Shown one piece after another: positions 1 to 27,683 of a DNA stretch of 64,000 nucleotides (positions are counted from its first letter, which is position 1; each line of letters opens with the position of its first letter). The stretch is from assembly GCA_963780985.1 (NCBI GenBank), contig CAWAEF010000003.1, forward strand, positions 110,693-174,692. The letters run 5' to 3'. The stretch comes from an uncultured Alphaproteobacteria bacterium (lineage in GTDB: Bacteria; Pseudomonadota; Alphaproteobacteria; JAGOMX01). Made by a program: the position numbers and the translations under genes. The notes beneath the pieces were generated by a model that saw only the letters and a program-made list of their open reading frames with translations, was not told the origin of the DNA and searched no databases.

Positions 1-708
1 GTTGTACCTACACCTGCAGTCCAACCACCGATTGCCCGACCTGCACCTGTTGTCGTACCTGCACCCGCCATAACAAGGGCACTGCCGCAAGGATTTGATA
101 TAAGAGCATACATAGCAAACAATCCGGACATAACAAGAGACGCCCCAAAGTTTAATATGACTCCAGAAAACTTTGCCATACATCAGTGGAAGACATGGGG
201 TTGGAACGAGGCCCGCGTTTTCCTTGCGCAATTCATGTTCCCACAGGCGTACCTGGATATGTATCCTGATGTACTGGAACTTGCCAAGCTACTGGGTAAG
301 AACCCACTTGTGTATGCCCAAGAGCATTGGTTTACGCGAGGCAGGTATGACGGCACTCAAGGTGAAGGTCGTCTCACCATGGCCGGCCCGTTTGTGAAGC
401 CGGATAATTTCTGTGTGGAAGCATATAGGGCGCTCTATCCCGATATCGATTTCCATGCACCACGCTTTGCTATGCGACCAGATATTTTTGCGATGGTACA
501 ATATATCAAGTGGGGTAAAGCCGAGGGTCGATTGGTGCTATCAAAGCCAATCATTGTTCCGAGTGGGTTTAACACTCAGAGATACATCGAAAAGTACCGC
601 GCAAAGCTTGAAGCCGAGGCAAAGAAATTTCGCGTGCCGGATCTTACCATTTATGCCAAAGCGCAGTACTCCCAATGGGGTGCCAGCGAAGGCCTAAACG
701 ACAAGTAA
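1..708 (+). CDS. C-terminal part of a repeat-family secreted protein. The reading frame is open to window position 1, and a Pro-rich linker is followed by four ~46-aa repeats.
   Basis: The frame of the listed ORF 157..708 stays open back to nt 1 (VVPTPAVQPPIARPAPVVVPAPA...FDIRAYIANNPDITRDAPKFNMTPENFAIHQWKTWG), which is another copy of the repeat. The repeats match those in 867..2510 and 3039..4157. The conserved C-terminus is YAKAQYSQWG. Confidence 0.7.
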   Translation, partial: VVPTPAVQPPIARPAPVVVPAPAITRALPQGFDIRAYIANNPDITRDAPKFNMTPENFAIHQWKTWGWNEARVFLAQFMFPQAYLDMYPDVLELAKLLGKNPLVYAQEHWFTRGRYDGTQGEGRLTMAGPFVKPDNFCVEAYRALYPDIDFHAPRFAMRPDIFAMVQYIKWGKAEGRLVLSKPIIVPSGFNTQRYIEKYRAKLEAEAKKFRVPDLTIYAKAQYSQWGASEGLNDK

Positions 709-733
709 AACCCCTCAATTAAGAACCAACGAG

Positions 734-767
734 CCCTTGAGAGTATAACGCTCTCAAGGGTTTTTTC
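734..767 (+). terminator. Rho-independent terminator (cccttgagag...ctctcaaggg followed by TTTTTT).
   Basis: A GC-rich 10-bp stem hairpin followed by a T-run, 26 nt downstream of the stop at 708. Confidence 0.55.
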
Positions 768-866
768 TATCTTGCTCCCGTTCCTGAAAAATGTTCTTAT
801 GTTGAAAAGATACTGCAACAATGAGCGCTCAGGGCATCGCCCTTCCTCATCCCATGGGAGACTAAC

Positions 867-2510
867 ATGCGACTTCGCCATTCTTACTTACACTTAGCGC
901 TCGTCATCTGTTTAGGCCTGACCCCAGCTATCACGTTCGCTAGCGTTCCAGTTCCAGATGAACTCACCAGTCGAAAGATCCAACTCACGAAAGGTGATAC
1001 ACACGGGCACACCAAAAGAGATCTCAAAAAGTTTGGCAAAAAACATCCTCGGGTAAAGCAAGATGTACCTAACGGCAATGCGGCCCGGAAAGTACTTCAA
1101 GAGCTAACACTTCCTGAAAATTTGGATTCCAACTCCCCTACCCTGGGTGGATATGGCGAAGTTTACTTGGCCAAGAATTACGTGGTTAAAATCTCAAAAC
1201 CGAGCGGCTCCACCACACCAGAGCGAGAGCTTGCCGGATTATTAGATTTAAAAAGGCGCTTGGGCGCAAACCCCTCCCCCGGCCTGACATTTTGTTGGCC
1301 TAAAGTCGCTTATGAGACTTCTCCGGCGGGGCATGGCAAAGCCAAACCAAAGCTGGGTGTGCAACCCTTCAACATGTACGTCTACGACAGGGTTAATCCT
1401 GTAAAATCGATGAAAACGGTTGTATGGGAAGCACTCGTTTTTAACTCCACGGGCTCAAGAATGGACATCTGTGCATTCGGTGAATGCTTGGGCAGGTTCC
1501 AAGCAAGTTCACTCCTGAAAATCGACAATGGCCGCTATGTTTCCAATGCGCACATGGATCTTAACTATAATAATATCCTGCCTACGGGCCTTCCGTCCCT
1601 GGGCCAAGCCCCAGCGTTTTCCCTTATTGACGTAGCGGATGTGCGTCTTGCGGCAGATCCAAATGCCCCAGAATTACCCATCGACCCTCTCTATTTCGTT
1701 CTTATATCCATACAATGGACCGCGGGATCGGAAGGGTACAGAAATCTTAGCCCGAGTACCAAGAAGAGGCACATACAGGCCTTCGCAAAAGAATTTTTTC
1801 TAGGTCTTTTGAAACCTTTTTCAAATGAAGTGAGAGAAGAACTAAAACCGATTTATACCACGTCGAGTGCAATAAATATCTTCACAGACAAAAGCCCAGG
1901 CAATAATCGTCGGAAAGTTTATCATGCAAACATATTTAGACATTATGACGCATGGATATTACCTGCCATTCGTGAGGCATTTCAGGATGTAGGGGCCCAA
2001 CCTAGCGCGATGCCCGCACCCATACCCGGCCTTCCTGCAGACTTTAATGTACAAGCTTATCTGGACATCTACCCAGATGTCGCCCGAGAAGCCCCTCACT
2101 TTAAGATGGACCCGCTCACCTTTGCAGCATACCAGTATGTCAACTGGGGCCGTTTTGAAGGCAGCCAAAATGAGGGACGCCTCTATCTGACGGGCCCTCT
2201 GGACGTACCCGCCGATTTCTGTGCGGAAGCCTACGCGGAAATGTATCCAGATATCGCTTTGGATGCGCCCCGGTTCTGCCTAGACCCCCTTGTATTTGCC
2301 AAGGTCCAGTACCACAAATGGGGTAGAACCGAGGGAAGGCTCGTCCTCACGAAGAAGATTGAGGTGCCTACGGACTTCAATGCTCAGAAGTATTTAGATA
2401 ATTATCCCCACTTTTACGAGGAAGCAAAGCAATATGGCGTTGACCCTCTTATTTACGCGAGGGCGCAATATTCCCAATGGGGTAAAGGCGAAGGTAGAAG
2501 CTATCAATAA
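867..2510 (+). CDS. Secreted protein with an N-terminal eukaryotic-like protein-kinase-like domain and three C-terminal family repeats.
   Basis: Signal-peptide-like N-terminus. Kinase-like motifs: GGYGEVYLAKNYVVKISK (Gly-loop/VAIK-like) and SNAHMDLNYNNILPTG (HxDLxxxNIL catalytic-loop-like). C-terminal repeats FNVQAYLDIYPDV...QYVNWGRFEG x3, ending YARAQYSQWGKGEGRSYQ. Confidence 0.7.
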   Translation: MRLRHSYLHLALVICLGLTPAITFASVPVPDELTSRKIQLTKGDTHGHTKRDLKKFGKKHPRVKQDVPNGNAARKVLQELTLPENLDSNSPTLGGYGEVYLAKNYVVKISKPSGSTTPERELAGLLDLKRRLGANPSPGLTFCWPKVAYETSPAGHGKAKPKLGVQPFNMYVYDRVNPVKSMKTVVWEALVFNSTGSRMDICAFGECLGRFQASSLLKIDNGRYVSNAHMDLNYNNILPTGLPSLGQAPAFSLIDVADVRLAADPNAPELPIDPLYFVLISIQWTAGSEGYRNLSPSTKKRHIQAFAKEFFLGLLKPFSNEVREELKPIYTTSSAINIFTDKSPGNNRRKVYHANIFRHYDAWILPAIREAFQDVGAQPSAMPAPIPGLPADFNVQAYLDIYPDVAREAPHFKMDPLTFAAYQYVNWGRFEGSQNEGRLYLTGPLDVPADFCAEAYAEMYPDIALDAPRFCLDPLVFAKVQYHKWGRTEGRLVLTKKIEVPTDFNAQKYLDNYPHFYEEAKQYGVDPLIYARAQYSQWGKGEGRSYQ

Positions 2511-2634
2511 AGCTTCTTGCCAGGTGGCCTTGTGCTTAAACAAGGCTCTTGTGCAAATCGAATGGGTAAAGGGTGATCAGTATGCTAAGCTGAACATGAG
2601 TGAGGGTAATTGCCATGCGAATTTTCCCCGCTCC

Positions 2635-2866
2635 CGTCATCCTGAACGGACGACCGCGAAGCGGGCGGGAGAGAAGGGTCCAGTCAGACATGTGTCGCGA
2701 AGCGACTCTGATGTAGATGGTCCCACTCATCTTGTTCAACGTCAAATGGACAGCTGGTTGTTTCGTTTGAATATTGGATATATTTTTAAGCAGAGTCGCT
2801 TCGCGACACGTGTTTAACTGGATCCTTCTCTACCGCCCGCTTCGCGGTCGTCCATTCAGTATGACG
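2635..2866. repeat. MITE-like palindromic element, family A, copy 1 (~232 bp with ~76-bp terminal inverted repeats).
   Basis: Left arm cgtcatcctgaacggacgaccgcgaagcgggcgggagagaagggtccagtcagacatgtgtcgcgaagcgactctg. Right arm is its near-perfect reverse complement ending ...cagtatgacg. A second full copy lies at 32349..32571. Confidence 0.7.
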
Positions 2867-3038
2867 TCTGCCAGGGGCAAAAGATTACATCCAGCCCACA
2901 CGTTTCGCTTAAGAGCCATAAACAAACAATCTGTTATACATAAAGCTTTGTTAGCGCTTAACTATATCTTGACAAAACAGAATGAAACAATGTATAAATT
3001 CAATACTGTATCTTTTTTTTATTTAGTAAGGTTAGACA

Positions 3039-4157
3039 ATGATTAAAACTGTTCGTTACTTTATTATCCTTCTGGCTTTTTCCGCCCAAGCCTATGGGTC
3101 TAATTTGATTGAGGAACTAGCTCCCCATACGGCTAAGTTTGCCAGGTTTATGGATAATCCGCCTCTTAACCCCTTCAATCCTCAAAGTATTCATGCATTT
3201 AACCGCTTAGCTAGGCCCTTTGCCGAATTTTTGCGGCTGAGTAACACTATACTTATGACTGAAGATCCTTTAAGTCCTCGACAGATCCTGGACCAACTGT
3301 CCGTCCTGCGTGTGGCTCATAACTATCCGGACCACATAGAAGAAGCCTTAGAACAGATCCGTGTCTATATTGCTGCTGGCAGCGATTATGATGCGGAAAC
3401 CAACATGAACTTAAATTATCTACTCCGCACCGTCTGGAGTTATATGCAGAACGATGGGCCCGAAGCTTTGGAAGGTAATTTAAGCGAACTATTCTTCTAC
3501 GTAGGACAAAACGTCTACGAGGGAGGCGGATGCTTCCCAGGTCATGTGGGACGACTGATGTTCCTGAACGGCCTTCATGTCCTGAGAAATCATCGTGCTC
3601 AGATGGAGTATCTCGGGCTGCCATACCCTATACTCGAGGAGGAGCCCCGAAGGCCGCCCATAGGGAATTTACCACGGAAGATCACGAAGCACCTGCCGCG
3701 CGGATTTCATGCACAGGCATACATAGACATGTATCCGGATATCATCAGGGACGCACCGCGCTTCAAGATGGACCCGTTCACCTTCGCGGCCTTTCAGTAC
3801 GTGAAGTGGGGCCGGTCAGAAAATAGAATCTATCTGACATGCCCTTTAGATGTGCCAGCTGACTTCAACGCCGAGGCCTATTGCTTGATGTATCCAGACG
3901 TCGAACAAAATGCTAAAAAATACTGCATGCAGCCCCTCATCTTCGCCAGAGTTCAGTATTTTCTTTGGGGTAGACAGAAGGGAAGACTATGCCTTACCAA
4001 GCCTATTGTCGTACCTGATGATTTTAATGCGGAACAATACTTACACAACCACCCCCGTATGTACGAAGAGGCTAAAAGATTCGGCGTTGAACCCTTAATT
4101 TACGCTATGGCTCAGTATTCCCAGTGGGGTAAGGACGAAAAGAATAGTTACAAGTAA
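3039..4157 (+). CDS. Secreted repeat-family protein (unique N-terminal domain plus three C-terminal family repeats).
   Basis: Signal peptide MIKTVRYFIILLAFSAQAYG. Repeats FHAQAYIDMYPDIIRDAPRFKMDPFTFAAFQYVKWGR..., FNAEAYCLMYPDV..., FNAEQYLHNHP..., ending YAMAQYSQWGKDE. Confidence 0.8.
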   Translation: MIKTVRYFIILLAFSAQAYGSNLIEELAPHTAKFARFMDNPPLNPFNPQSIHAFNRLARPFAEFLRLSNTILMTEDPLSPRQILDQLSVLRVAHNYPDHIEEALEQIRVYIAAGSDYDAETNMNLNYLLRTVWSYMQNDGPEALEGNLSELFFYVGQNVYEGGGCFPGHVGRLMFLNGLHVLRNHRAQMEYLGLPYPILEEEPRRPPIGNLPRKITKHLPRGFHAQAYIDMYPDIIRDAPRFKMDPFTFAAFQYVKWGRSENRIYLTCPLDVPADFNAEAYCLMYPDVEQNAKKYCMQPLIFARVQYFLWGRQKGRLCLTKPIVVPDDFNAEQYLHNHPRMYEEAKRFGVEPLIYAMAQYSQWGKDEKNSYK

Positions 4158-11667: not shown

Positions 11668-12903
11668 ATGAAGTATATTGCATTTATCATTATGATTTTT
11701 ACGTTACCCTTGGCTCATGCTAGCCAGGGAGTATCTGTTGACCCCAACGCCCAAGAAGAAGCGGCTCGCCAGCGCGCACAGGCTCGAAGAGAGCTCAACC
11801 AAGGACTTGCAGAGAACCTGCGGCCACCCAAGAGCAAGCCACAATTAAAACATCTTTGCCAATTACAAGCCATGGAGCTAGACCCCCATTGGACATTTCA
11901 AGGAATGGCTACTTTCTTGGATGTCCAATATCTCTTCCTTGGCAATCTGAACTTGGCGACACTGCCTTCCTCACTTACCCAGCTTAAAAAGCTTGTAACA
12001 CTGGATTTATCAGACAACCGCCTTACAGAAACCCCCTCCTGGCTAACAATGCTCAAAGTATTGGATGAGCTAAGCCTAAATCACAACGAGTTAGACACGA
12101 GCAAAGACTTCCTTAAGGGAGCAAAACACGTAAGAAAGCTGCATCTAAATGGAAACGGCTTCACACAAGTTCCGACCGCTCTTGATGGCATGACGAAACT
12201 GGTAGTCATCGATCTGAAGGATAATAAAATAGAAGAGATTCCAGCCTTTATAAGTAATCTCCCGCTGAGAGGTCTATGCCTTGCGAATAACATGATCGAA
12301 GAACTTCCCGCGCATATGTCACAGATGAGAAACCTTAGAACTCTAGAACTGCAATCAAATTCTTTGCGCTCACTACCAAACTTCCTGTTGAGTCTAGCTA
12401 ATTTAGTTTACGTAGATGTTAGTAACAACAAATATTTAGTGCAAAATAAGACTGCTGAAGCGCTAAGACTACAAGGCAAACTCGATATGACCCAGCAGGT
12501 TGCCACGCAACTTGCTTCAAAAGCGACAAATAATATGGTCGCTACAGTTCAGAACAAGCCCCAGACCCAGGCACCGAGAGCAACGACGGAGCTGAAAGCA
12601 GCCGAGAAAATCAAGCAGCAAGCAGTTGCAAGCACTCCTCAAAAAAGGCCGCGGCCCTCCAAAAAAGACAGCCCAGCCACTGACTTGGATCTAACGCTGG
12701 TGGAGGGCAAAATCGACTCTGTGGCAAAAATCCTCTCGGACGTACAACCTGACCAGAGATTATTAATAGCACTGACTGCTGCAAATCTCCCAAAAAGAAA
12801 CAGCGATTCGACTATATATAATACATTGATCGCCTTGGGAATCGATAATGTCACCGCAGAAAAGATGATGAAGCAACTGCCCAAAGATAAGCAGAATAAG
12901 TAA
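11668..12903 (+). CDS. Secreted leucine-rich-repeat (LRR) protein, eukaryotic-like effector candidate.
   Basis: Signal peptide MKYIAFIIMIFTLPLAHA. About ten LxxLxLxxNxL repeats, for example LVTLDLSDNRLTETP and LRTLELQSNSLRSLP. Confidence 0.75.
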   Translation: MKYIAFIIMIFTLPLAHASQGVSVDPNAQEEAARQRAQARRELNQGLAENLRPPKSKPQLKHLCQLQAMELDPHWTFQGMATFLDVQYLFLGNLNLATLPSSLTQLKKLVTLDLSDNRLTETPSWLTMLKVLDELSLNHNELDTSKDFLKGAKHVRKLHLNGNGFTQVPTALDGMTKLVVIDLKDNKIEEIPAFISNLPLRGLCLANNMIEELPAHMSQMRNLRTLELQSNSLRSLPNFLLSLANLVYVDVSNNKYLVQNKTAEALRLQGKLDMTQQVATQLASKATNNMVATVQNKPQTQAPRATTELKAAEKIKQQAVASTPQKRPRPSKKDSPATDLDLTLVEGKIDSVAKILSDVQPDQRLLIALTAANLPKRNSDSTIYNTLIALGIDNVTAEKMMKQLPKDKQNK

Positions 12904-12913
12904 TTAAACCTGA

Positions 12914-15053
12914 CTACCCCTTAGCGCGATCGACGCTGCTGATGTGGGATGAAGATCGCAGCGCACCTATAATATTGTTCAGGTGAGATATATCGGTAAC
13001 TTCCACATCAACGATAACGTCGAAGAAGGTCTCCGTTCGGTGGGTTATCTTCAGGTTTAATATGTTACCGCCATTTTTGCCGATCAGGGTCGTCAGGGCT
13101 GCAAGGCTGCCCAGCTTGTTATAGATGGTAATCCTTAGGCGCGTTACATACTTGTCCTCGACACTGGATTCATCAGACCAGCCCACATCCAACCAACGAT
13201 CAGGCTCATCTGCGTATCGTTGCAGGGTATCACAGTCTTCCGTATGCACAGTCACACCACGGCCTGTTATCACAATACCGACAATTTTGTCACCGGGTAG
13301 AGGGTGACAACAACCTGCATAGTGCACCGCCATTCCTGGAATAAGTCCTTTGAGCGAGACTTTACCTTCCGTGTGGGTCTTTTTATCCGACCATTCTTCA
13401 GGTGTCTTGGTTCGCTTATCAGAGACCAGTCTTTCAGGGTGCAGCACCCGGATAATTTCAGAAACCGTACGTTGTCCTTCACCCAGAATCGAGTATAGAT
13501 CCTCGATAGATTTACAACCCAACTTGCCCAGATTTTCAGTCAGAGTCGCCTCATCAAATACGAGCTTTTCGGCTTTGAAAGTCTTTTGCAGTATGGTCTG
13601 CCCCAGCGCCACAAACTCATGGCGCTTTTGGGTGCGGATGTACCGGCGGATGGCTGATCTCGCCTTACCCGTGACCGCATAGCGTTCCCATGTGGGTGAA
13701 GGCGTTTGTGCCTTGGAGGTGGTGATCTCCACCTGGTCACCATTATGGAGCACGTACGCAAAGGCACCATACGCCCGTTTATTTTGGCGCCTACGCAATG
13801 ATTGCCCACAGCGCTGTGCACCGCATAAGCAAAGTCGATGGGTGTGGCCCCACTAGGCAGGGAGATCAAATCACCCTTGGGCGTAAAGCAGAACACCTGA
13901 TCCTGGAACATTTCCAGCTTGGTGTTTTCCAAAAACTCTTCTGGATCTGAAGCATTTTCAAGGATATCCAACAGCCCACGCAGCCATTTATAACCGGAAG
14001 AAGCCTCATCTACTCTCCCGCCTTGTTTATACCGCCAGTGAGCAGCCACACCGTAGTCATTGACCTCATGCATATCCTTGGTACGGATTTGTATCTCAAT
14101 ACGATACCCTTTCGGACCGATGACGGTTGTGTGAAGAGACTGGTAGTTATTGGGTTTTGGCGTTGATATGTAATCTTTAAATCGCCCCGGTATCACCGAA
14201 TAAGCCCCATGCAGGTAGCCAAGTGCCTGATAGCATTCCGACACACCGTTAACAACTACCCGGAACGCGACAATGTCCGACAACTGTTCGAACGTCACGT
14301 TTTTATTACGCATCTTTCGCCAAATGGAATAAGGGGATTTTTCCCGACCAGAGATCTTGACTTCCATCCCGTTGTTTTCAAACAGGTCCTTTAAATCCTT
14401 GGTAATAACGTTGACTGAGTCTTCATCTTCTTCCCGCAGGAACTTGAGACGGGCCAGAATAGAGTCCCTGGCATCGGGATTTAGTTCTCTAAAAGCCAGA
14501 TCCTCAAGCTCGTCCTTCATTTTGTGCACGCCGATGCGCTGGGCCAGCGGCACATAAATTTCCATGGTCTCCCGCGCTTTACGGGCGCGCTTTTCAGCCG
14601 ATGGCAAGTAATGTAGCGTCCGCATGTTATGCAGGCGGTCCGCCAGTTTAATAAGCGACACCCGAATATCATTGGACATAGCCAACACGAGTTTACGAAA
14701 GTTCTCCGCTTGCTCTTGCTGGTGAGACTCCCATTTGATCATGGAAAGTTTCGTAACCCCATCCACTAGCTTGCGCACGTCTTTGCCGAAGTGTTTTTCA
14801 ATATCATCAAGACTGACGTGGGTGTCCTCAACGGGTCATGCAACAATGCCGTAACGATAGAAGCCGTATCTAGCTTCATTTCCGTCAGGATGCCAGCAAC
14901 TTCCAAAGGATGAGAAAAATAGGGATCACCGGACGCACGGGTTTGCGACCCATGGGCCTTCATGGCAAAGACATATGCTGAGTTTAAAGCATCCTCATCC
15001 GCATTTGGATCGTAGGCTTTTACTCGTTCTACAAGCTCATACTGTCTGATCAT
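12914..15053 (-). pseudogene. spoT: Bifunctional (p)ppGpp synthetase/hydrolase SpoT/RelA homologue interrupted by two frameshifts.
   Basis: Three consecutive same-strand ORFs: 14766..15053 (HD hydrolase N-terminus), 13540..14778 (synthetase/TGS) and 12914..13798 (C-terminal ACT region). The N-terminal junction needs a 1-nt correction at ~14830 (catgaccCgttgaggac should be catgacAccgttgaggac to read HDTVEDTHVSLDDIEKHFGKDVRKLVDG). The second junction lies near 13.76-13.80 kb. Confidence 0.8.
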
Positions 15054-15325: not shown

Positions 15326-17250
15326 TCATGTAACCGATTTTGTATTATCAGTTCCTCTGGCGGGCATAGTATCCTTCACTTCATCGTAGAACCTGTAGTG
15401 TCCCTTGCCGGATTTCTTGGCTGCGTACATGGCCGTGTCACTGCTAGTTAGAAGCGCCTCCGGTGTGATACCGTCTTGGGGAAATACTGATATGCCTATA
15501 CTTACACCAAAGGGGACTTTTTTCCCGTTATAATCATAATGATCACCAACAGCCTTAAGTATACGATCGGCAATGTGCGTAAGATCTTCCCGGCTACATG
15601 GAGTTCTGAGGATGATTGCAAATTCATCCCCTCCCAAGCGCGCAATGACGTCTGGAGTACGCACGCACTTTTTGAGGGTATCGCTGATGTATATAGCACC
15701 TGATCCCCCACATCATGGCCCAGAGTATCATTGATTGCCTTAAATCCATCCAGATCTAAGAACATCAAACCAAAGCGTTCTAGAGTGGGCCCATTGGCTG
15801 CAAAGGAAGACGTCAAGTTGGCCTCAAAAGAAGCCCTGTTGGCAAGACCTGTTAACGCGTCATGCATAGCCAGATACGTCAGACGATCTTCGTCTTGCTT
15901 GCGGTTTGTCACGTCCTTATGCACTGAAACGAGGCCGCCATCTGGGGTTGCGCTATTGACGATCTCAATCCAGCGACCATCCCGTAACCGAACCAGATAT
16001 GGCGCAGACAACTTCTGGCGTGCCTCATTCAGGCTTACCCAGTTGTCTACATCTTGCGCCGTCGCAGCCTGTGCCTGACCTAACTGGCGACGTTCTTCGA
16101 AATAGACGCCTAGCTCCATGTTCTTACGCAGCAATTGCTCGTAAGTGAATCCATGATTGCCCAGCCTCTCAACACCAGGATAGAGTCTCTGGAACTGTTC
16201 ATTACAGAGATTCAAGCGTTCGTCGTGATCAAAAACAGCAAAACCATCGTCAATACTCTCAATGGCTGTTTCTAGCTTTTTACGGGCCATCTCAAGCTTG
16301 TCCAAGTTCTGTTGCTCTCGATCTCGTAAATTCTTCTTTTCAAGACATGCCTTTATACGGGCATGCAATACGACAGGGTTAAAGGGCGTGGGCAGGTAGT
16401 CTTCTGCGCCAACCTCAATACAGCGTACGATACTATCCACCTCACTGAGCGCGGAAATCATCAGCACGGGTATGTTTTTTGTAGCCGGATCACTCTTCAA
16501 ACGTGTTAGCACCTCATACCCGTTCATAACCGGCATCATGATGTCGAGTAGAATCAGATCCACCGGTTTTTGAGACACCACTTCGAGACCAGCAGCACCG
16601 TCTTCTGCGGTGATAACTTTAACACCGTAACGAGATAGACGTCGACGCAGGATCTCGCGGTTGTATGGGGAATCGTCTATGATCAAAACCGTGTTGTCGG
16701 CAAATTGCTCTCCGTAAGGCAAGTTGCTCTCAACCAGACCTTGGTTGTATGTCAGGTTTTCGTTGGTGCTGAATTCCTCGTTTTGAATGAGGTCATCCAA
16801 GCGAAGGCCATCAATGACGGGAATCAAGTTGTTGGCGTGTTCAATTATAACACCAAAGCCCTTGCTAAAATTAGCCGCAGCTTCTGTGCTTTCATCCCCT
16901 AATTCCTCTTGGATAAGTTCACTATAGCCTAAGATCGCACCCACCTTTGCGCGCAGGTCATGACGGGCTTCTTTCATATGCTCTTCGGTCAGATCATTTG
17001 CCTGAATCCAGTTAGCAATAGAAGTTCGGTCCTTTTCTACCAATTCAACAAATTGATCGCAAGCAGTGAGGATACTGTTCAGATCCTCTTCAAAATTTGG
17101 AAATTCTCTACCAGCCTCCACGGCTTGTACCACGAGAGGTTTTATGTACTCTACTGCACGCAAGATTTTCGTAAAAATCTGCTCGACTTTGAGGGCGGCT
17201 TGTTCACCACGGACTGCGTTCATTTCATATGCTATCCCATTACCAGACAT
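15326..17250 (-). pseudogene. Response regulator receiver-PAS-GGDEF (diguanylate cyclase) protein with a frameshift inside the GGDEF domain.
   Basis: 15502..17250 encodes the REC domain (LIIDDSPYNREILRRRL...DLILLDIMMP), a PAS-like segment and the start of GGDEF. The GGDEF core (RLGGDEFAII) continues in the overlapping ORF 15326..15664 in another frame. Confidence 0.7.
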
Positions 17251-17763: not shown

Positions 17764-19405
17764 ATGATTATAAAAACATTAATAATATGGAATGATTCTC
17801 AAATGTCAAAAGAGACGGTTAACCCAGGAATTCCGCAAATCTTGATGGCTAAAGGCTTTCTGTCAAATGATCAATTCGCAATTGTCAAAAAGGAGCGGGA
17901 AAAAACCGGAAAAAATTTTTCGCAGACGCTGGTTGCTTTGGGTTTTATCAGCGAGCAATCCCTCAATCAGATCGTTGCGGAGCATGGCGGCTTTACGGCG
18001 CTCGATCTTTCTTCCACATCCCTGGATCATGAGCTAATTAAAACCTTGCCAAGACACATCGCGGAGCAAAGGCAAATGATACCGGTGTCCATGGAGGGCA
18101 GTAACCTTTTGCTGGCATTGGTGGATGTATATGATTTGCGGGCGCTGGATCAGGCTCGGAAGTATTTTCCCCATTGTACCCTGCAACCAGTTCTGACCAA
18201 CAGCGCACAACTGAAAGCTGCCATCGATCGTTATTACGGCTATGAACTTACCGTCGACAAATTGCTGAAGGAAATTGAGAGCTCAAATGTGGCCCTCGAG
18301 GGCGAAACAACTTGGGTCAGTCCTGTTGTCCGTCTTGTTGAAACGCTTTTGATCCATGGGATTAAATTGGGAGCCTCCGACGTTCATTTTCAGCCAGAGG
18401 AGAGCTTTGTTCGCGTAGATATCGCATCGATGGCATCTTGCAACAGCACTGCGTCTTCCACAAGTCCTATTGGTCCGCTATCTGTGTGCGCCTCAAGGTT
18501 ATATCTGATCTAAATCTAGCTGAATCACGACGACCCAAACGGGACGCTTAAGCCTGATGTACGGCTTGCGTGAGGTCGACTTTCGCGTTTCTTCACATCC
18601 TACGGTCTATGGCGAAAGCATCGTCTTGCGTATCCTAGACAAACAACATTCCATCAGGTCTTTGGAGCATCTAGGCTTCAACCCGGAACAAGTGGCGAGC
18701 CTTATCCAGCAGATCAAGCAGCCTCAGGGTTTGTTTATTATTACGGGCCCAACAGGATCGGGTAAGACCACCACCCTTTACTCGATTTTGCAGTACCTTA
18801 ACAGTTCCTCACGCAACATTATGACCTTGGAGCAGCCTGTGGAATACCGGCTGCCTATGATTCGACAGTCAGAAATCCGGGAGATGAGCAAGACCACCTT
18901 TGCCGACGGTGTCAGGAGCCTTTTGCGGCAGGATCCGGACATCATCTTCATCGGCGAGGTGCGGGATGAGGATACGGCTCAGATGGCCCTGAGAGCGGCT
19001 ATGACGGGGCATCTCGTGTTTACGACCTTGCATACCAATGATAGCGCCAGCGTCATTTCTCGCCTTCGGGATCTGGGGCTCAAACCCGGCATGGTGGCGG
19101 ATTACCTCGTGGCCTCGGTCTCCCAGAGATTGCTACGGTTGCTTTGTGCGAATTGTGGAGGAGATGGTTGCCAGGACTGTCATCACACTGGATTCAAGGG
19201 ACGGCAAGCAGTGGGGGAGATACTGGTCTTTAATGCGACCCTTAAAGACCTGGTTGCAGAGGGCGCATCCCCTAGCCTTTTGCGCAAAGCCGCAACGGAA
19301 CAGGGGTTCAAGCCTATGGCAGCGGTGGCGCAGGACATGATTGACAAGGGACTCACCACAAGGGATGAAGTGGATTTCCAGCTGGGGGCTGCTCATGGGG
19401 AATAG
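17764..19405 (+). pseudogene. GspE/PilB/MshE-family secretion ATPase with a T2SSE_N domain, interrupted by frameshifts near 18.43 and 18.54 kb.
   Basis: The N-terminal T2SSE_N-like domain is in 17764..18513. Walker A GPTGSGKTTT and the C-terminal tetracysteine CANCGGDGCQDCHHTG are in 18557..19405. The conserved RIDG.../AESRRP segments read in a third frame between the two ORFs. Confidence 0.75.
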
Positions 19406-20599
19406 GCTTTACACCTATAAAGCGGCCGCCCATGGGGGAGAGATTATTCGCGGCAGCGCCCTTGCAACGGATGCTCAAGCCCTTTACCAGCAGTTGCGGG
19501 ACCAAAACCATTTTCTTATCTCCACCAGGGTCAAAAGAGGTCTGTTGACGGGCTTATTTAAGACCAAGGTCACGCCTCAGGAACTCTTTGATTTTTGCCT
19601 ACATATGCAATACATGGATCAGGCTGGGGTACCGTTGCTGGATGCGCTCCTGGATGCGCAAAGCTCGAGCACCAAGCTGAAACCTGTGCTGGCAGATATG
19701 ATCACACAGATTAAAGGTGGCAGGATGCTATCGGAGACGATTGCTAGCCACAAAGATACTTTCCCGGATATGTTTCAACCCATTATCTATCTGTCCGAGC
19801 AATCGGGTCAATTGGCCAAGGTTTTAAAACCCTTTATGAGCACCTTTCCTGGAAGGAACAGAATAAGCGCCAGCTGAGCAAAAGTCTGCAATACCCAGCG
19901 ATGGTCTTTGGCCTGATCTGTGTGGTGATGTGGATGATGTCGGTGGTGGTGGTGCCACAAATGTTTGATCTGATCAAGATGAGCGGCGTTGAAGTTCCCT
20001 ATTCTACCAGGTTGCTGTTAGATATAAATCAGGGGCTTGTGCAATGGGCACCACGAGCGTTAATGCTTGGCGCCTGTGGTCTGTTGTTGATCATGGGCCT
20101 GCGTTTTCTTTCCTTGAGTCATAAACTGCGCCAGGATCGGCTGTTATTGAAGGTCCCATTTATCGGACAGTTGTTAGTCAAGCGCGATTTGGCCATGTAT
20201 CTTCACTTTTTTCATGTGTGCCTTACGTCTCATATAGACTTGTTGGAGTGTATGGATTATGGCCGTAAAGCTGTGCGTAATTGTTGGCTTCAGGAAAGGC
20301 TTGCGGCTTGTGCCAAAGCCGTGAGAGAAGGTTCCACCTTGTCCAAAGCGATGCAAAATGCGGGTATTTTTGATGCCTCTACCTTGCGCATGGTTCAGAT
20401 CGGCGAGATCACAGGGCATCTGACAGCGCTTTTGGCCGTGCTGGAAAATTATCATGTGCGTGATTTAAAACGACAAATCGAGCGTTTTCTCACCTATCTT
20501 CAGCCTGGCTTGTTGGGTATAATTGGCCTGATGTTAATCTGGATTGTGGTGGGGATATTCTATCCTCTATACGACCAGTTGTTGGTAATAGAAGGGTAA
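19398..20599 (+). pseudogene. GspF/PilC-family inner-membrane platform protein with a frameshift in an A-run near 19829-19832.
   Basis: The N-terminal half is MGNRLYTYKAAAHGG...QSGQLAKVLK. The C-terminal half is MVFGLICVV.... The alternative frame reads KTLYEHLSWKEQNKRQLSKSLQYPAMVFGL continuously if one extra A is inserted in gttttaaaaccc. Confidence 0.75.
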
Positions 20600-20602
20600 G
20601 GC

Positions 20603-21841
20603 ATGCCGCAAGGGACGCTCGTCATAGGCGATCATCATATAAGCTACCATGATTGTCGCGGCGCAAGAGTTGTGGTTCAAGGTCCGGACGATATCCCTGT
20701 GGGGACATCATTACGGGTATTGTTAAATTTCTCGGATCTGGATGTATATGCTGAGTCTATACCGGCCATGGGCAGATGGGACCGCTATGGATTATCTCGG
20801 ATGCGATCCCGGCAGGAATCGACAGCGGTGCTCAAAGGCCATCGTATGTTTAAGGACAGCCTGGTCGAGGTGAGTTGCCCCCTTACGGATGACTTGCGGC
20901 ATCTGCTTGAGGCCCTGGTAAACGGAGGCGTGAGGATCACACGTATGGAGCCTTTGTTAATAACCCCTCTCACACCACATCCTCATACCCTAGTGGTGAG
21001 CGATCATGGCGCGGATGGTATTCGGCATACCTTGTTCCAAGAATCGAAACCTCTCTTCACCAGACTAACTTCCGCACCTGTTGAAGTTATGACCACGATG
21101 ACCTACTTGCGGAACCATTTTCAGCTGAATGCCACTTATGTGCAGTGTCATATAACGCCACAGGATTTTGAGCTACTTGTTAAGCGCGAAGATATGGAGC
21201 TCGGTCTCTATCCCTTGGTGGATTTATCGGATAACAAGGCGTATGCATTTTCATTGCCCGCTTTTGTTCTAGAAGCTAATAACCGTTACCGGGCAAAAAT
21301 AGCCAATCGTCTGGGTGCTGTGGCGGCTGTTGTCTTGTTTATGGTTGCAGGGTGGCAATACTATGACTATCAGGGCCTACAGGATCGCCTTGAAGGCCAG
21401 CAGCAAAAGGTATCTGGTCTCAGCGAGAAACTCACGCTTCTTAAGGCGGATCTGTCCTTGGATAAATTGTTACCTCAATCCTATAAGGACAAGATGGCAG
21501 AACCATCGCCTATTGATCTGTTGCGGCATATAAGCAGTATTATGAGTAATGATATGACCCTGTCTGCGCTGAAATGGGAAAACACCCCTCAGGAAGAACG
21601 CTTGTTGCTGCAGGTGCGGATTGTTGCTCAGGATGAAGACTTAGACCAAAACGTGGATGTGGTTCAGGATTTCAAAACCAATCTGGCGAGTGCGCTGCCA
21701 GGGTTTGTGGTGGAGGCTCCGTCTCTGCCTCATGGGTCTGGGGATCAGGAGACTTTTACGGGAAGCACCAACGCTCAGGACTTGACCCTGGCTGGGGATA
21801 GGGAAAAGGCTACTATCCAACTGACTAGGAAAAAATCATGA
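20603..21841 (+). CDS. Bitopic membrane protein with GspL/PilM-PilN-like architecture (cytoplasmic domain, one TM, periplasmic domain).
   Basis: 412 aa with a single TM LGAVAAVVLFMVAGW at ~aa 230. It is operonic and its start overlaps the pilC-like stop. Confidence 0.4.
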   Translation: MPQGTLVIGDHHISYHDCRGARVVVQGPDDIPVGTSLRVLLNFSDLDVYAESIPAMGRWDRYGLSRMRSRQESTAVLKGHRMFKDSLVEVSCPLTDDLRHLLEALVNGGVRITRMEPLLITPLTPHPHTLVVSDHGADGIRHTLFQESKPLFTRLTSAPVEVMTTMTYLRNHFQLNATYVQCHITPQDFELLVKREDMELGLYPLVDLSDNKAYAFSLPAFVLEANNRYRAKIANRLGAVAAVVLFMVAGWQYYDYQGLQDRLEGQQQKVSGLSEKLTLLKADLSLDKLLPQSYKDKMAEPSPIDLLRHISSIMSNDMTLSALKWENTPQEERLLLQVRIVAQDEDLDQNVDVVQDFKTNLASALPGFVVEAPSLPHGSGDQETFTGSTNAQDLTLAGDREKATIQLTRKKS

Positions 21842-22362
21842 GGAACATATTTATTCAATCGGGGTTAGTAGTTATCTTGGTTCTGGCTGGCCTTGGGGGA
21901 AATGCCTATTTATACCAAGCCCGGGAGGAAGCGCGTGGGGAGCTTGCTGGGTTAGATCAATCTTTTCAGCAAAAGCAGGCTTTGATAAAGCTCGCGAGTC
22001 AAAAACCAGATAAGCCATCCATAATCGGCCATCGTCTGGCCATTCCTTGCAATCGCTTATCGGTCAGCGAGGACTTTCAACAGCTGAGCAAAACCTTACG
22101 CTTGGCCCGCCTTGATTTTCAGATCTCGCCTGAGACAACGGTTGAGAATGCCTTTTCAGAATCTATCGTTGAGCTCAAATTCCAGAATCAGTCGGATCAA
22201 CCACTGTTTCATATGATTGCCCACCTGATGGACGAGTTTCCTGGCCTGGTGTATCCCATGGAGATCGTTATGTGGCGAGAGCCTTCTCAAGATAAACCGC
22301 TGATATCTGGCACCTTTCGTTTTTCCTGGTTAAAAGGTGTCACGGAAAAGGTGGCGTCATGA
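21838..22362 (+). CDS. GspM/PilO-like bitopic protein.
   Basis: N-terminal TM IFIQSGLVVILVLAGLGG followed by a coiled-coil-like segment. The gene overlaps its neighbour by 4 nt. Confidence 0.35.
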   Translation: MRNIFIQSGLVVILVLAGLGGNAYLYQAREEARGELAGLDQSFQQKQALIKLASQKPDKPSIIGHRLAIPCNRLSVSEDFQQLSKTLRLARLDFQISPETTVENAFSESIVELKFQNQSDQPLFHMIAHLMDEFPGLVYPMEIVMWREPSQDKPLISGTFRFSWLKGVTEKVAS

Positions 22363-22979: not shown

Positions 22980-23216
22980 ATGGTCGAAATTTTCGGATCA
23001 AAGGACCTAGGAAACATCATCAGGGACTTGCGCAAAAGGGCAGGTTTATCCCAGGAAGCACTTGCGGAACTTGCGGGACTCAGCCGTACGGCTGTGCAGG
23101 CGCTGGAGGGTGGCAAGGAAACGTGCAAATTAATTACTGTGTTTAAGGTCGTGAAGATTTTGAACATTCATGTTCACTTAAGCCACCCACTGATTAGGGA
23201 TATGCCCCATGAATGA
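22980..23216 (+). CDS. hipB: XRE-family HTH protein, HipB-like.
   Basis: LRKRAGLSQEALAELAGLSRTAVQALEGG is a classic HTH_XRE. The gene lies immediately upstream of the split HipA-like genes and overlaps them. Confidence 0.75.
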   Translation: MVEIFGSKDLGNIIRDLRKRAGLSQEALAELAGLSRTAVQALEGGKETCKLITVFKVVKILNIHVHLSHPLIRDMPHE

Positions 23217-23565
23217 ACGTATCCCTACAGAAGGGAACTACAAGCGTCGCTTGCTTATCACATGTCATGGGGTCCCGTGCGGGTATTTTATTCAAACCGA
23301 GAACAATGAATATTCCTTTACCTACTTTGAAGATTATCGGGGCCCTCCCATATCTTTAACCATGCCGGTGCGGTCTGAACCTTACACCTTTAATCGGTTT
23401 CCGCCCTTTTTTGACGGATTGTTGCCAGAAGGCATACTGCTGGAGGCTCTCATTCGGCAGAATAAAATTGATGCCCATGATTACATGGCGCAGCTAGAGG
23501 CCGTTGGAGCCGACATGGTGGGGGCGGTAACTGCCTTGCCTGATTCTATGAAAAAGGGGAAATGA
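23209..23565 (+). CDS. hipS: HipA N-terminal-subdomain-like protein, HipS-like.
   Basis: FPPFFDGLLPEGILLEALIRQ matches the HipA N-terminal motif FFDNLLPEG. 118 aa. Its stop overlaps the next start in ATGA. Confidence 0.65.
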   Translation: MNERIPTEGNYKRRLLITCHGVPCGYFIQTENNEYSFTYFEDYRGPPISLTMPVRSEPYTFNRFPPFFDGLLPEGILLEALIRQNKIDAHDYMAQLEAVGADMVGAVTALPDSMKKGK

Positions 23566-24518
23566 TGCGCTGCCCCATTACTTACGAGGAACTTCTTCCC
23601 GGGGAAGAGAAATATAGCGCGGCTGGCTTAAAACGCTTGTCGCCGAATCTCAAGACCTTGAAAGATTTTCCCTATACCATGGAAGAACAGCTGCGAGAGG
23701 CAAATCGCTTAGCTTCTAAACTCTCCATTCAAGGCGTTCAACCCAAACTGAGTGTCGTGCTTGATGTAACCCATGAAACATTTAAGATCACCGATAAGGG
23801 CGGAACCTTTATCCTAAAACCACAAAACCCCCAATGGAATAGCCTGCCCGAAAATGAGGACCTGACCATGCGCCTGGCTGCGCTGGTTGGGATTGAGGTG
23901 CCTCTGCATGGTTTGCTGTACTGCAAAGACGGCGCCTTGAGCTATTGGATCCGCCGCTTTGATCGTCCATCCTTACGAAATCCGACAAACGTAAAGCTAA
24001 GCCTGGAAGATTTTGCCCAGCTGAGCCAAGAAGACCGCCAAACAAAATATAACAGCTCCATGGAAAAGGTGGCCAAAGTCATCCGCGAGTTCTGCTCCTT
24101 CCCCATTATGGAATTAGAAAAGTTGTTTAGGTTAACCATATTTAACTTTGTGGTCGGGAATGAGGACATGCACCTGAAGAATTTTTCGTTAATCACCAGG
24201 GACAACCTGATATCCCTATCCCCGGCCTACGATTTACTTAATTCCACTCTCGCCATGGGCACTGGAACACGGGAGGAAATAGCTTTATCTCTTAATGGGA
24301 AAAGGCAGAAACTGAAGGCAGAAGATCTGATAGATACCTATGGTATTGAACGATTAGAGCTACGCCCTAGTACCGTCAACAAGATCCTGCAGACGATAAT
24401 TGAGGCTCAGCCTCTATGGATAGAACTTATAGACCGAAGCTTCCTGTCGCAAGCGCAAAAAGAGGGCTATAAATCCATTATCCATGAGAGGTTGGAACGG
24501 CTCTTGCGGAACAAGTAA
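23562..24518 (+). CDS. hipT: HipA-family kinase core, HipT-like toxin.
   Basis: P-loop-like GVQPKLSV and catalytic motif VGNEDMHLKNFSL, which matches GNxDxHxKN of HipA. 318 aa. Confidence 0.75.
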   Translation: MMRCPITYEELLPGEEKYSAAGLKRLSPNLKTLKDFPYTMEEQLREANRLASKLSIQGVQPKLSVVLDVTHETFKITDKGGTFILKPQNPQWNSLPENEDLTMRLAALVGIEVPLHGLLYCKDGALSYWIRRFDRPSLRNPTNVKLSLEDFAQLSQEDRQTKYNSSMEKVAKVIREFCSFPIMELEKLFRLTIFNFVVGNEDMHLKNFSLITRDNLISLSPAYDLLNSTLAMGTGTREEIALSLNGKRQKLKAEDLIDTYGIERLELRPSTVNKILQTIIEAQPLWIELIDRSFLSQAQKEGYKSIIHERLERLLRNK

Positions 24519-24537: not shown

Positions 24538-26136
24538 CTATTTCCTCTTGGTGTAAAAGTTATCTTCGTTTCTACCCCATATGGAGAACTGTGCCCTTGC
24601 GTAGGCAAATGGATCACCAATTCTGAATCTTTTGGCCTCTTCGTGGAAGCGCGGATTATCGTGCAGATAACGATGCACATCAAGATCAGCAGGCACAACT
24701 ATTGGCCTTTCAGTATGTAGCTTTCCTTCCGCAATTCCCCAGGTGACGTATTGGTAAAGAGCAAAAGATACGGGATCGAGATTGAAACGCGGAGCATCTC
24801 TGAGGATATCCGGGTACAATTCAATGTATGCATCGGCACAGAAAAACTTAGGCAGCTTAGCCTTCCGGTTGTCGTCAAGCGCGACCAGCAGCGCTGGGCT
24901 GATGGGAGCAAGTACCGGATCCGGAACAGACGGCATCCCAGGCGCTTTAATTTGAGCTGGCACAGCGTTATTATGAAGCAGGTCTATTTCCTTCACACAT
25001 CTAAGCCATGCCCGAGTGGGATGTAAGAGCCCCTGCCCCCAATGCCGCGCTCCCTTTGCGTCATAAGATCCTGGCTTTAAAGCAGATGAGAGCATAAAGC
25101 GTTTGATGTCGACCATACTCAGTTCAGGGAAGAGGTGACTTAGAGCCTGTACCACTGTAGTTCCTTTAGGAGCGCTGTGAGAAGTCCCTGTATGAACTGA
25201 ACTGTTAAGCGTAAGGGCATGCTCAGCACACAGGACATGATCCTGTAAATCACCGGCTCGGTTTGAATAGCTAGCCATTCTCCAATCATAACCATGTTCT
25301 GGCCATGCTTTGGGAAGAAGTTCAGCAGCAGATACAAGAAGAACCCGCTTCAACAAGTTTCGGAACTTCAGAAGAGCACTGGTTATATCTACATACCCAA
25401 CATCCAAGCGTTGGCCCTGATAAGGGGCATAGTCCAGGTTGCTGTCCATTTCACAACCTTTATTGCCAAGAGCTTTAACCAGCAACATATCATTATCATC
25501 AAGAATCTTGGCAAATCTATTGACGTCTGCATCCAGTGTAGCCATGCTGAAGACCATCGCCATAGACATATTGATGACCCGAGGTATGGGCTTACCCTGA
25601 CGCTTATATCGCTCTATAGTCGCCTCGATTCCATCCATCACGTATTTATTAATCGTCGACATACCGCGCTCACCATCTTCGGTGAGCTCGCGCCGAGGTG
25701 AGCTTATAAAAGGAATAACTGTCGCACCGGCTGCCATAGGCGCATAAATAGAAAACTTGCCCTTTCCCGCAGCAGCGCACGACACGGTCGCCCCATGAGC
25801 GATCATGCCCCTGTGGCTATTAAGACGAGCCAATATGGCGGGATGAACATCATAATTAACATGATCAATGCCACTGAATGCAACATCGAGAACAATCATA
25901 GAGGAGCCATCACCTTTAACACCCCCGCTTCTGAAATGCTCAATGTCTTGGATGTCCGGCAATTCTGCCGCCTGCCGAAGGAAGTCAGGGTCAAGAAGTT
26001 TGGGATCCAGCCTAGCACGCCGCTCGCGGCCAAGGTCTTGGGGATTATCATTACTGCATGCAAAGCTTGTACTTGGGACCAGACAAGCGGCAATAGCTAG
26101 GATAGCAAGATATACTTGCAGTTTAAATTTTAACAT
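24538..26136 (-). CDS. Lipoprotein with a divergent subtilase (S8)-like domain and two C-terminal family repeats (fourth member of the repeat family).
   Basis: Signal peptide and lipobox-like LVPSTSFAC. Candidate Asp/His/Ser motifs VLDVAF, AHGATV and HTGTSHSAP (GTSxxxP). C-terminus FFCADAYIELYPDILRDAPRFNLDPVSFALYQYVTWG...YARAQFSIWGRNE. Confidence 0.55.
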   Translation of the reverse strand: MLKFKLQVYLAILAIAACLVPSTSFACSNDNPQDLGRERRARLDPKLLDPDFLRQAAELPDIQDIEHFRSGGVKGDGSSMIVLDVAFSGIDHVNYDVHPAILARLNSHRGMIAHGATVSCAAAGKGKFSIYAPMAAGATVIPFISSPRRELTEDGERGMSTINKYVMDGIEATIERYKRQGKPIPRVINMSMAMVFSMATLDADVNRFAKILDDNDMLLVKALGNKGCEMDSNLDYAPYQGQRLDVGYVDITSALLKFRNLLKRVLLVSAAELLPKAWPEHGYDWRMASYSNRAGDLQDHVLCAEHALTLNSSVHTGTSHSAPKGTTVVQALSHLFPELSMVDIKRFMLSSALKPGSYDAKGARHWGQGLLHPTRAWLRCVKEIDLLHNNAVPAQIKAPGMPSVPDPVLAPISPALLVALDDNRKAKLPKFFCADAYIELYPDILRDAPRFNLDPVSFALYQYVTWGIAEGKLHTERPIVVPADLDVHRYLHDNPRFHEEAKRFRIGDPFAYARAQFSIWGRNEDNFYTKRK

Positions 26137-26258: not shown

Positions 26259-26549
26259 TTAATGATGCAGAGCTTTCTGCACAACATCGGGAGCATAATT
26301 AATCACCTTCAATAACACCCGAGAGGCTCCGCTCGGGCGACGTCGTTTTTGTTCCCATTGCTGCAATGTACGCAGTTGGAAACCGAATTCTCTGGAGAAT
26401 TGTTCCTGAGTCATATTATTCTTCTTACGAATTTGGCCTACGTCAAAATCCTCAACAATAACTGTGCGTCTGTTGAGAGTAATTTCTCCCCGCACATCTG
26501 CCAAAACCTCTTCCAGACCGGCTATAAGCCTTTTTCCAAAGTCGCTCAT
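26259..26549 (-). CDS. HigA2/COG2944-like HTH antitoxin-type regulator (orphan).
   Basis: MSDFGKRLIAGLEEV...MTQEQFSREFGFQLRTLQQWEQKRRRPSGASRVLL, 96 aa. No intact toxin gene upstream. A MITE lies 140 bp upstream. Confidence 0.55.
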   Translation of the reverse strand: MSDFGKRLIAGLEEVLADVRGEITLNRRTVIVEDFDVGQIRKKNNMTQEQFSREFGFQLRTLQQWEQKRRRPSGASRVLLKVINYAPDVVQKALHH

Positions 26550-26878: not shown

Positions 26879-27676
26879 TCACTTCTTCCCCCGCTCCGCA
26901 AGCGGGTGATTAAAGGCAGGTGGCTGAATGGCGTTGTTTTGTTGTGGAGCCGCTGATGGCTCTTTACATGGGGACTTACCATAAATGCCCATCAGATTGC
27001 GGGCCGTAACCCATTTGACGATTTGTCGGAAGGGTTTACCGCTTTTGTCGGCGCCGTAGGGTTGGTCGTGGAATACTAGTGTTCCGCTGCAGTTGACTTT
27101 TTCTTCGGGGCTCATTGACTCGCTTGGAATGCGTTCTGTTCGTTCACCGGTAAAAGCCCCTTGCCCGCTGGGTCCGTGGCTGATGAGAACCAGGGCGACA
27201 AAGTCTTGGGACCTGTCATGGTTTTGGGGATAGATCACTTCACCTTTAACTTTCAAGGTTATTGGGGACCTAGGTGACTTTCCGCAGAACTTATTGGTAC
27301 CGGAGGGGCTCGGAAGCGAATCGATGAAAACTGGGATAGCATAGGTCATATAACGGCCAAAGCCGTCTTTGGCTTGGGATTCGGTCAGGCCTAGCGTCCG
27401 ATAAGGCACGATGCCGACAGCCTTGTTAGGTTCCGTGACCGTCTCGGACTCCCCTTTCTTGGAGGGATCTGCGGGACCGGGCAGCTCGCCCGTCATTACC
27501 AGATAAGAGGCCACCGCTTGGGTAACCAGTTCTTGTCGCTCTTTGGTTTCCCGCAGGCTCGCCTGTTGGCGATAGCGCAGCAAAGAGGGCATCGCCGCCC
27601 CCAGCACGAGCCCCATGACGATCAGGACGATCGCCAACTCAAACAGTGAGAAACCAGCCCGGGCATGATTTTTCAT
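26879..27676 (-). CDS. Type IV pilin / pseudopilin-like protein with a large C-terminal domain.
   Basis: Prepilin leader MKNHARAG followed by FSLFELAIVLIVMGLVLGAA (G-F-S-L-x-E motif). A C-terminal Cys pair is present. Start placed at the internal Met at 27676. Confidence 0.65.
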   Translation of the reverse strand: MKNHARAGFSLFELAIVLIVMGLVLGAAMPSLLRYRQQASLRETKERQELVTQAVASYLVMTGELPGPADPSKKGESETVTEPNKAVGIVPYRTLGLTESQAKDGFGRYMTYAIPVFIDSLPSPSGTNKFCGKSPRSPITLKVKGEVIYPQNHDRSQDFVALVLISHGPSGQGAFTGERTERIPSESMSPEEKVNCSGTLVFHDQPYGADKSGKPFRQIVKWVTARNLMGIYGKSPCKEPSAAPQQNNAIQPPAFNHPLAERGKK

Positions 27677-27683
27677 CGGGCAC

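Follow-up and report, generated by a model that had tools for sequence, protein, structure and literature searches.

Why should exported proteins with different N-terminal domains end in the same tandem repeat? This question is raised by a stretch of 64,000 nucleotides (hereafter the window) from an uncultured Alphaproteobacteria bacterium (assembly GCA_963780985.1, contig CAWAEF010000003.1, positions 110,693 to 174,692 of the forward strand), in which three adjacent genes, A, B and C, and a fourth gene, D, carry copies of one repeat unit at their 3' ends. A previous, sequence-only reading of the window had suggested that the repeat is a targeting, anchoring or secretion-recognition module and had compared its C-terminal end to type IV secretion signals. 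Our results showed that the array is a folded, non-catalytic module common to exported proteins with different heads, and that what it represents is a real domain family, moderate in size and uncharacterised, as opposed to a novel type of system. The architecture of the proteins and their partner domains suggest, with moderate confidence, that the array is a multivalent binding or tethering module.

Four genes of the window share a C-terminal repeat unit

Tandem C-terminal units of ~52 residues each were found in 4, 3, 3 and 2 copies in genes A, B, C and D, respectively. These counts agree with the two to four terminal copies described previously, and the open reading frames (ORFs) of the four genes were confirmed at the coordinates given then. 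Gene A enters the window as its 3' part (1..708, frame 1, + strand, from the ORF listing), the gene being cut by the window edge, and its units were placed at 70-225, 211-366, 385-540 and 550-705 by the unit alignment and a hidden Markov model (HMM) of the unit. The other three genes were delimited by ORF listing and translation, and their modules by alignment, HMM and leave-one-out searches. Gene B (867..2510, + strand, 547 aa) ends in a three-unit module at 2019..2507 (2019-2174, 2193-2348 and 2352-2507), and gene C (3039..4157, + strand, 372 aa) in a three-unit module at 3681..4154 (3681-3836, 3840-3995 and 3999-4154). Gene D (24538..26136, - strand, 532 aa) carries two units at 24550..24867 (24712-24867 and 24550-24705) and ends in a short basic tail, TKRK.

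From start to start, the units are spaced by 47-58 aa, typically 53, around a conserved core of ~46 aa; the unit length of ~46 aa proposed previously therefore holds for the core but not for the period. The 12 units were aligned over 52 columns, giving the consensus xxxxVPxDFxAxAYxxxYPDxxxxAKRFxxDPLxFAxxQYxxWGRxEGR, which matches the one written down in the sequence-only reading. Residues Y14, A25, A36 and G44 are invariant among the 12 units, and P6, P19, P32, Q39 and W43 are at least 90% conserved. A search of all six frames of the window with the unit HMM returned exactly the 12 known units and no further repeat copies, the next-best fragment having an E-value of ~0.4. When HMMs were built with one gene left out, each omitted unit was regained with an E-value of 3e-7 to 1e-24, as compared to only 0.1-0.6 for the top unrelated window fragment.

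The unit matches no curated model and is predicted to be helical

The sequence-only reading had found no named domain in the repeat, and had proposed profile searches with the isolated unit, a structure prediction of three units and a search for the module elsewhere. In the repeat region of A-D we observed no match to a Pfam-A (2025) or NCBIfam r20 model at E<=1, and the unit profile gave 0 matches to PDB sequences at E<=10; within these three collections the claim stands. No description of the repeat was found in the literature, where literal motif strings were also searched.

An AlphaFold2 model of the B module (163 aa), based on an alignment of the four window paralogues only, was confident and helical, with a pLDDT of 88.7 and a pTM of 0.81. 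Each unit is predicted to form three short helices, with short extended linkers between them. The NPD/YPD and DP motifs fall at helix starts, as read from the secondary-structure string only, and look like helix N-caps in this model. Aromatic residues make up 15-17% of the modules. Comparison of the module to solved chains of the PDB with Foldseek gave 0 matches at E<=1e-3.

The heads differ and are preceded by putative export signals

According to the sequence-only reading, the repeat follows unrelated N-terminal domains of kinase-like, subtilase-like and unknown type. All three types were borne out, and the B-type, C and D heads indeed differ from each other, but A and B have paralogous heads, 40% identical, which belong to a single family together with three further proteins from metagenomes. 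The head of B (about aa 26-380, delimited by motifs, AlphaFold2 and Foldseek) contains GGYGEVY, VVK, HMDLNYNNI and IDVAD, and the A and B heads have in common the glycine-rich loop, the VVK lysine, the catalytic loop HMDLNxNNI and the metal-binding motif IDxxD. These motifs are kept in 4 of the 5 members of the head family; a relative in which they are degenerate, P0005, may be a pseudokinase. The AlphaFold2 model of the B head was of moderate confidence (pLDDT 75.7, pTM 0.79), and Foldseek found 153 matches to it in the PDB at E<=1e-3. The best 50 of the 153 were kinases or kinase-fold proteins, with PINK1, aminoglycoside phosphotransferases, glucosamine kinase and WaaP among the top matches, at TM-scores of only 0.3-0.4. 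Thus, the A and B heads resemble the protein-kinase-like superfamily in the G-loop, the VVK lysine, HxDLxxxN, IDxxD and the fold matches, and differ from it in their low TM-scores and in having no match in Pfam, Pkinase and APH included, or in the PDB by sequence or profile, so that the kinase relationship comes from the fold search only. A kinase-like assignment of both heads is supported by the motifs and the predicted structure.

The kinase-like head and the signal peptide of gene A lie upstream of the window start. The full-length gene encodes a protein of 579-624 aa, which is 624 aa long in a second strain, represented by a contig of a JGI assembly, L001 (5796..7670), where its signal peptide ends in ...STWA/SNVP (the slash marks the cleavage site). 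A terminator-like hairpin of 14 pairs and a T run follows gene A (731..763, + strand; from a consensus scan only), which suggests that gene A may form its own transcription unit. The head of C (aa 21-214) had no match in Pfam, NCBIfam or PDB sequences. The head of D (aa 113-353, 25078-25800, - strand) matched the subtilase family Peptidase_S8 (PF00082) with an E-value of 1.1e-5 and 25.3 bits, above the gathering cut-off of 21.8, and its translation contains the subtilase motifs HGATV, ALGNKG and GTSHSAP; the Asp motif, VLDVAF, is less canonical.

As had been suggested, all four window proteins appear to be secreted, each with a putative Sec-type signal peptide. Recognition was by eye and with a hydrophobicity scan: a basic n-region and a hydrophobic core precede an AXA-type cleavage site in B (aa 1-25, ...ITFA/SVP, 867-941, + strand), C (aa 1-20, ...AQAYG/SNL, 3039-3098, + strand), D (aa 1-26, ...STSFA/CSN, - strand) and the L001 copy of A.

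The array is old and was inherited as a block

The repeat might be a chance similarity or an assembly duplication, the latter having been named previously as a possible source of the paralogues. Assembly-type errors do occur elsewhere in the window, in the form of seven 1-nt deletions relative to another assembly. Nevertheless, the DNA of the units is only 60-76% identical between genes, and dS, the synonymous divergence calculated by the Nei-Gojobori method, is saturated in every paralogue pair, at a nonsynonymous divergence (dN) of 0.28-0.60. These values indicate that the paralogy is old and that purifying selection acts on the genes. Furthermore, the A-B-C gene order recurs in three independent assemblies (JGI, ENA and Logan), in which protein C is identical. 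Together with the E-values of down to 1e-24 in the leave-one-out searches and the 437 relatives found elsewhere (see below), these results leave an artefact with practically no probability, and we consider it refuted.

Over 6.8 kb, the window and the JGI contig L001 share 99.2% identity. Of the 54 differences, 28 lie within the first 500 nt, i.e., in gene A, and the 3' half of gene B and the whole of gene C are identical. The first 500 nt could be a hotspot of recombination or diversifying selection; alternatively, the window could contain assembly errors there.

Units in the same position of the array resemble each other across genes. The first units (A1, B1, C1 and D1) are 37-56% identical to each other, the middle units (A3, B2 and C2) 46-62% and the last units (A4, B3, C3 and D2) 37-67%, as compared to merely 18-40% for units in different positions; gene A has an extra, divergent unit, A2, and gene D lacks a middle-type unit. 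This same-position similarity indicates that duplication and transfer from gene to gene involved the array as one block, and that it was not amplified gene by gene. The last unit had been described previously as near-identical in all four proteins. This is true of an 11-residue stretch, IYAxAQYSQWG, that occurs in A, B and C but not in D, where AYARAQFSIWG is found instead, and the whole units are as divergent as the identities above show. The ending EGRxYK closes internal units as well as the last one.

The module is a branch of a wider repeat family

An exhaustive profile search of 1.84 billion cluster representatives found 437 relatives at E<=1e-3, 78 at E<=1e-10 and 9 at E<=1e-30. The repeat thus occurs beyond its source genome, and there, too, no curated model covered the repeat in 50 + 10 + 10 + 10 relatives, short forms (see below) included. 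A word-indexed homologue search with the C module or a 73-unit alignment returned nothing useful. A scan of the contigs of GTDB species representatives with a two-unit alignment gave no confirmed locus, which indicates that the organism and its close relatives are not among the species representatives searched.

The consensus of the family is LPxDFDxxxYLxLNPDVxxxAxxxxxDPxxFAxxHYxxxGxxEGRxYK, with 1-14 units per protein (median 3). The window-type Q-Y..W-G, found in only 14 of the best 150 matches where most of the others have H-Y...G, marks the window module as a lineage-specific QY..WG branch within a broader repeat family that is uncurated. This relationship, which had escaped the sequence-only reading, extends to a 40-aa short form (40-43 aa; FDxxxYLAxxPDLxxAFGxDxxxAxxHYxxxGxxEGR). 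The window unit was aligned to the short form by hhalign over 42 columns with a probability of 98.3% and an E-value of 2.5e-14, the short-form units having been chosen by a motif regular expression among proteins that the profile already matched. Both forms are built on the skeleton F-D...Y-L..NPD...HY...G..EGR and occur in tandem arrays. The window unit differs in being ~10 residues longer between PDV and HY, so that the second helix is longer and the third is DP-capped, in having Q-Y..W-G where the short form has H-Y...G, and in following kinase-like or protease heads behind Sec signals, whereas the short form occurs in RTX or glycosyltransferase proteins.

Among 144 relatives, the repeats are C-terminal in 60, in the middle in 50 and N-terminal in 34, and a hydrophobic N-terminus was seen in 60 of 138, including most of the closest ones. 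Close and mid-range matches that bear a name are called 'hypothetical protein' or 'WH2 domain-containing protein' and come from metagenome-assembled genomes labelled Alphaproteobacteria bacterium. Partner domains in the relatives include WH2, NUDIX, trypsin, S8, DUF2608 and Peptidase_S74. The short form was found in glycosyltransferases of families GT2 and GT4 and in surface proteins with RTX, Big_9, cadherin-like, Calx-beta and Ig-like domains, and distant repeats were found in virion-structural, ejection-protein, tail-fibre-like and tape-measure-like proteins of phages. P0067, which matches the virion-structural family phrog_6121, has its repeat units at about aa 100-212, and in P0030 a unit (aa 277-314) lies inside the match to the tape-measure family phrog_16823 (aa 272-319); the tape-measure PHROG match of P0011 (aa 1077-1145) is outside its repeat units.

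Two relatives, P0010 and P0033, have a signal peptide with a lipobox-like LGC, internal units and then a WH2 actin-binding motif at the extreme C-terminus. P0031, whose NCBI cluster is named 'WH2 domain-containing protein', likewise has internal units and a C-terminal WH2 motif and is without the lipobox-like N-terminus. From this domain order, the three proteins may be surface-displayed actin binders.

Other loci, of the same or a sister genome, also contain the repeat in arrays of genes. Five consecutive genes with two terminal units each were found at L005 (1-5815), which comes from the same two samples as a window-like locus and has a GC content of 0.48-0.49, similar to that of the window-like contigs. 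In a third sample, L007 (3150-14524) extends this locus to at least 7 genes of this kind, of which several are fragmented; the array also encloses a Glyco_transf_90-like gene. At L088, three units stand right after a signal peptide, with an F-box-like gene nearby. These arrays indicate that the repeat family has expanded, is tandemly arrayed and is turning over.

A proposed binding module rather than a terminal signal

We propose that, after Sec-dependent export, the tandem units would act jointly as a multivalent module that brings its enzyme to a common ligand, located in the cell envelope or at the surface of the host, in the way that SLH, LysM, choline-binding and peptidoglycan (PG)-binding repeats do on other exported enzymes. 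Of the functions considered by the sequence-only reading, targeting or anchoring is the best available, and a secretion signal is not favoured. The repeat is not confined to one end of the protein and occurs in 1-14 copies, as is easier to reconcile with a binding module than with a terminal signal. The shared ligand would most plausibly be a glycan or polysaccharide, because the partner domains are those of glycosyltransferases, of RTX and cadherin adhesins and of phage virion proteins that face the cell envelope, and because the aromatic content of the modules is high. An envelope or host-surface glycan is a tentative and weakly based suggestion, which takes up about half of the confidence that we place in binding as such.

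The comparison to known modules is close in architecture. SLH, LysM, choline-binding and PG_binding_1 repeats are also tandem, non-catalytic units of ~45-60 aa at one end of Sec-exported proteins, and they too accompany unrelated catalytic heads and have spread by domain shuffling. SLH arrays typically comprise three helical units of ~55 aa, like the arrays of B and C. The window module differs in that it has no sequence match to these Pfam families and no profile or fold match to them, and its host is a Gram-negative alphaproteobacterium.

Several observations weigh against a binding function. The functional assignment is drawn from architecture and partner domains, and it presupposes signal peptides that were called by eye and by hydrophobicity. 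The modules differ in net charge, with a pI of 5.0 to 9.2. Helix N-caps (NPD and DP) and core hydrophobics account for most of the conserved positions, which could be purely structural, and the PDB yielded no structural analogue that would point to a binding site. Furthermore, the glycosyltransferases and P0004, a protein with 13 or more units, have no signal peptide, which indicates that the repeat family is not limited to exported proteins.

The structural look of the conserved positions would also be expected if the array were a spacer, a stalk or an oligomerisation array without a ligand of its own, which projects or multimerises a functional domain at the surface. This explanation would suit P0010, P0033 and P0031, in which the repeats are in mid-protein and WH2 is at the extreme C-terminus, as well as the wide range of copy number, and the pTM of the B module model suggests that the three units may be rigidly arranged. 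In the window proteins, however, the array is terminal and has nothing to project, and the position-specific conservation of first, middle and last units, in spite of saturated dS, suggests that more than spacing is maintained. We consider a mere spacer unlikely.

We find very little to recommend the comparison, made by the sequence-only reading, to a C-terminal type IV secretion system (T4SS) signal, in which the last unit or the tail would target a coupling protein as in the Bartonella effector proteins (Beps) or the Dot/Icm signals. The modular cargo is like that of Beps, and the host is alphaproteobacterial and has effector-like gene content. The basic tail of D has counterparts in the relatives P0037 and P0099 (TKKK and YKKK, respectively), but A, B and C have none. 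The BID domain of Beps, which with its basic tail forms a bipartite VirB/VirD4 T4SS signal, is, moreover, an alphaproteobacterial, helical, C-terminal module of ~100 aa that is sometimes repeated and follows various enzymatic N-termini. However, we detected no similarity to it in sequence or fold; the window module consists of three-helix units of ~52 aa that in relatives are also N-terminal or internal. Sec signal peptides are atypical of T4SS substrates, and Beps have none, whereas all four window proteins carry one. The C-terminus belongs to a region that is predicted to be folded and rich in helices, for which neither a Pfam match, BID included, nor a PDB fold match was found, and its conserved extreme end is merely the end of the last folded unit, which leaves the analogy unsupported. 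In addition, the repeats are not C-terminal in 84 of the 144 relatives, some of which have a further domain, the WH2 motif, after them, and there is no T4SS gene within the 64-kb window.

If the array is indeed a binding or targeting domain, a Sec signal peptide combined with NPDV...HY/QY...G..EGR repeats would provide a sequence handle for the exported repertoire of poorly known, uncultured Alphaproteobacteria. A domain family of several hundred clusters, unannotated in current libraries, is now defined and merits a Pfam-style definition. As it takes in repeats of RTX surface proteins, glycosyltransferases and phage virion proteins, the structure and ligand of one unit would annotate the whole family together.

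A type II secretion or type IV filament gene set lies between the array and gene D

A set of type II secretion or type IV filament genes (17764-22362) separates the A-C array from gene D, and pseudopilin-like genes are located further on, at 26879-28403. The set comprises an ATPase with an MshEN (c-di-GMP-binding) domain, a GspF-like platform protein, two unassigned ORFs and two prepilin-type proteins. The PilB and GspE models score similarly on the ATPase, both below their cut-offs, and no secretin was seen in the window; a type II secretion system (T2SS) and a type IV pilus can therefore not be told apart here.

These genes raise the question of whether the module is a secretion-recognition element, i.e., a folded array that is read by an outer-membrane machine such as the neighbouring filament system. 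T2SS substrates are recognised as folded proteins, and a shared folded module on four proteins with Sec-type signal peptides would be a plausible T2SS determinant; the gspE/pilB-like, gspF-like and pseudopilin-like genes are, moreover, intact in an independent assembly. On the other hand, the apparatus is indistinguishable from a type IV pilus and is without a visible secretin, and repeats that stand at any position, in up to 14 copies, and also on signal-less glycosyltransferases and phage virion proteins are unlike a dedicated export tag. We regard secretion recognition as doubtful, and a new secretion mechanism is not revealed by the present evidence.

A related and similarly improbable proposal is that the module would be an unrecognised fold that marks and delivers the effectors of an uncultured, probably protist-associated alphaproteobacterial lineage, these effectors being secreted kinases, proteases and WH2 actin-binders. 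By one route, the neighbouring type II/type IV-filament machinery would recognise its substrates by the module; by the other, binding to a glycan or membrane at the host surface would take the Sec-exported enzymes to or into the host cell.

The window comes from an alphaproteobacterial lineage with effector-like genes

A permuted, two-piece alpha tmRNA was identified at 34365-34756 (Rfam alpha_tmRNA, 235.8 bits), with the predicted tag ANFNFKNLAMGQDNFATAAAAA. The PolA protein of the window shares 64-85% identity with a few proteins that come from metagenomes only, under the label Alphaproteobacteria bacterium, and about 58-60% with those of Rhodospirillales such as Thalassospira and Magnetovibrio. 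Judged by these similarities, the source lineage is alphaproteobacterial and known from metagenomes only.

The sequence-only reading had assumed a host-associated bacterium. The neighbourhood of the array is rich in effector-like genes (11668-12903, 29022-30038, 42026-47332 and 52784-54226): two of them encode leucine-rich repeat (LRR) proteins, one a patatin-like phospholipase and one a protein of 1768 aa that contains a DUF2608 region. This effector-like content would fit a host-associated lifestyle without proving it. Large ORFs without a family match are located at 38501-40384, 48472-50670 and 54499-55803.

In comparison to a JGI assembly, L090, single nucleotides are missing from the window at seven positions, 13752, 14834, 15215, 15694, 18416, 18535 and 19815. 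These deletions split a relA/spoT gene (12914-14778), a response-regulator/GGDEF gene (15502-17250) and the gspE/pilB-like (17764-19405) and gspF-like (19341-20599) genes of the filament set. The split genes were considered as pseudogenes, i.e., as signs of genome decay, and this was rejected because all four are intact in L090; from this comparison, the deletions are most likely assembly errors of the long-read type.

Gene D is adjoined by HipA_N and HipA_C toxin ORFs (23209-24518) and, on its other side, by an antitoxin-type gene that is HTH_3/MqsA-like (26259-26549); the HipA toxin is accompanied by regulators of the HTH type. Finally, at 57399-63622, two adjacent ORFs of ~1036 aa each follow an ORF of 424 aa, which by size and arrangement alone have the look of an RND-type efflux system.

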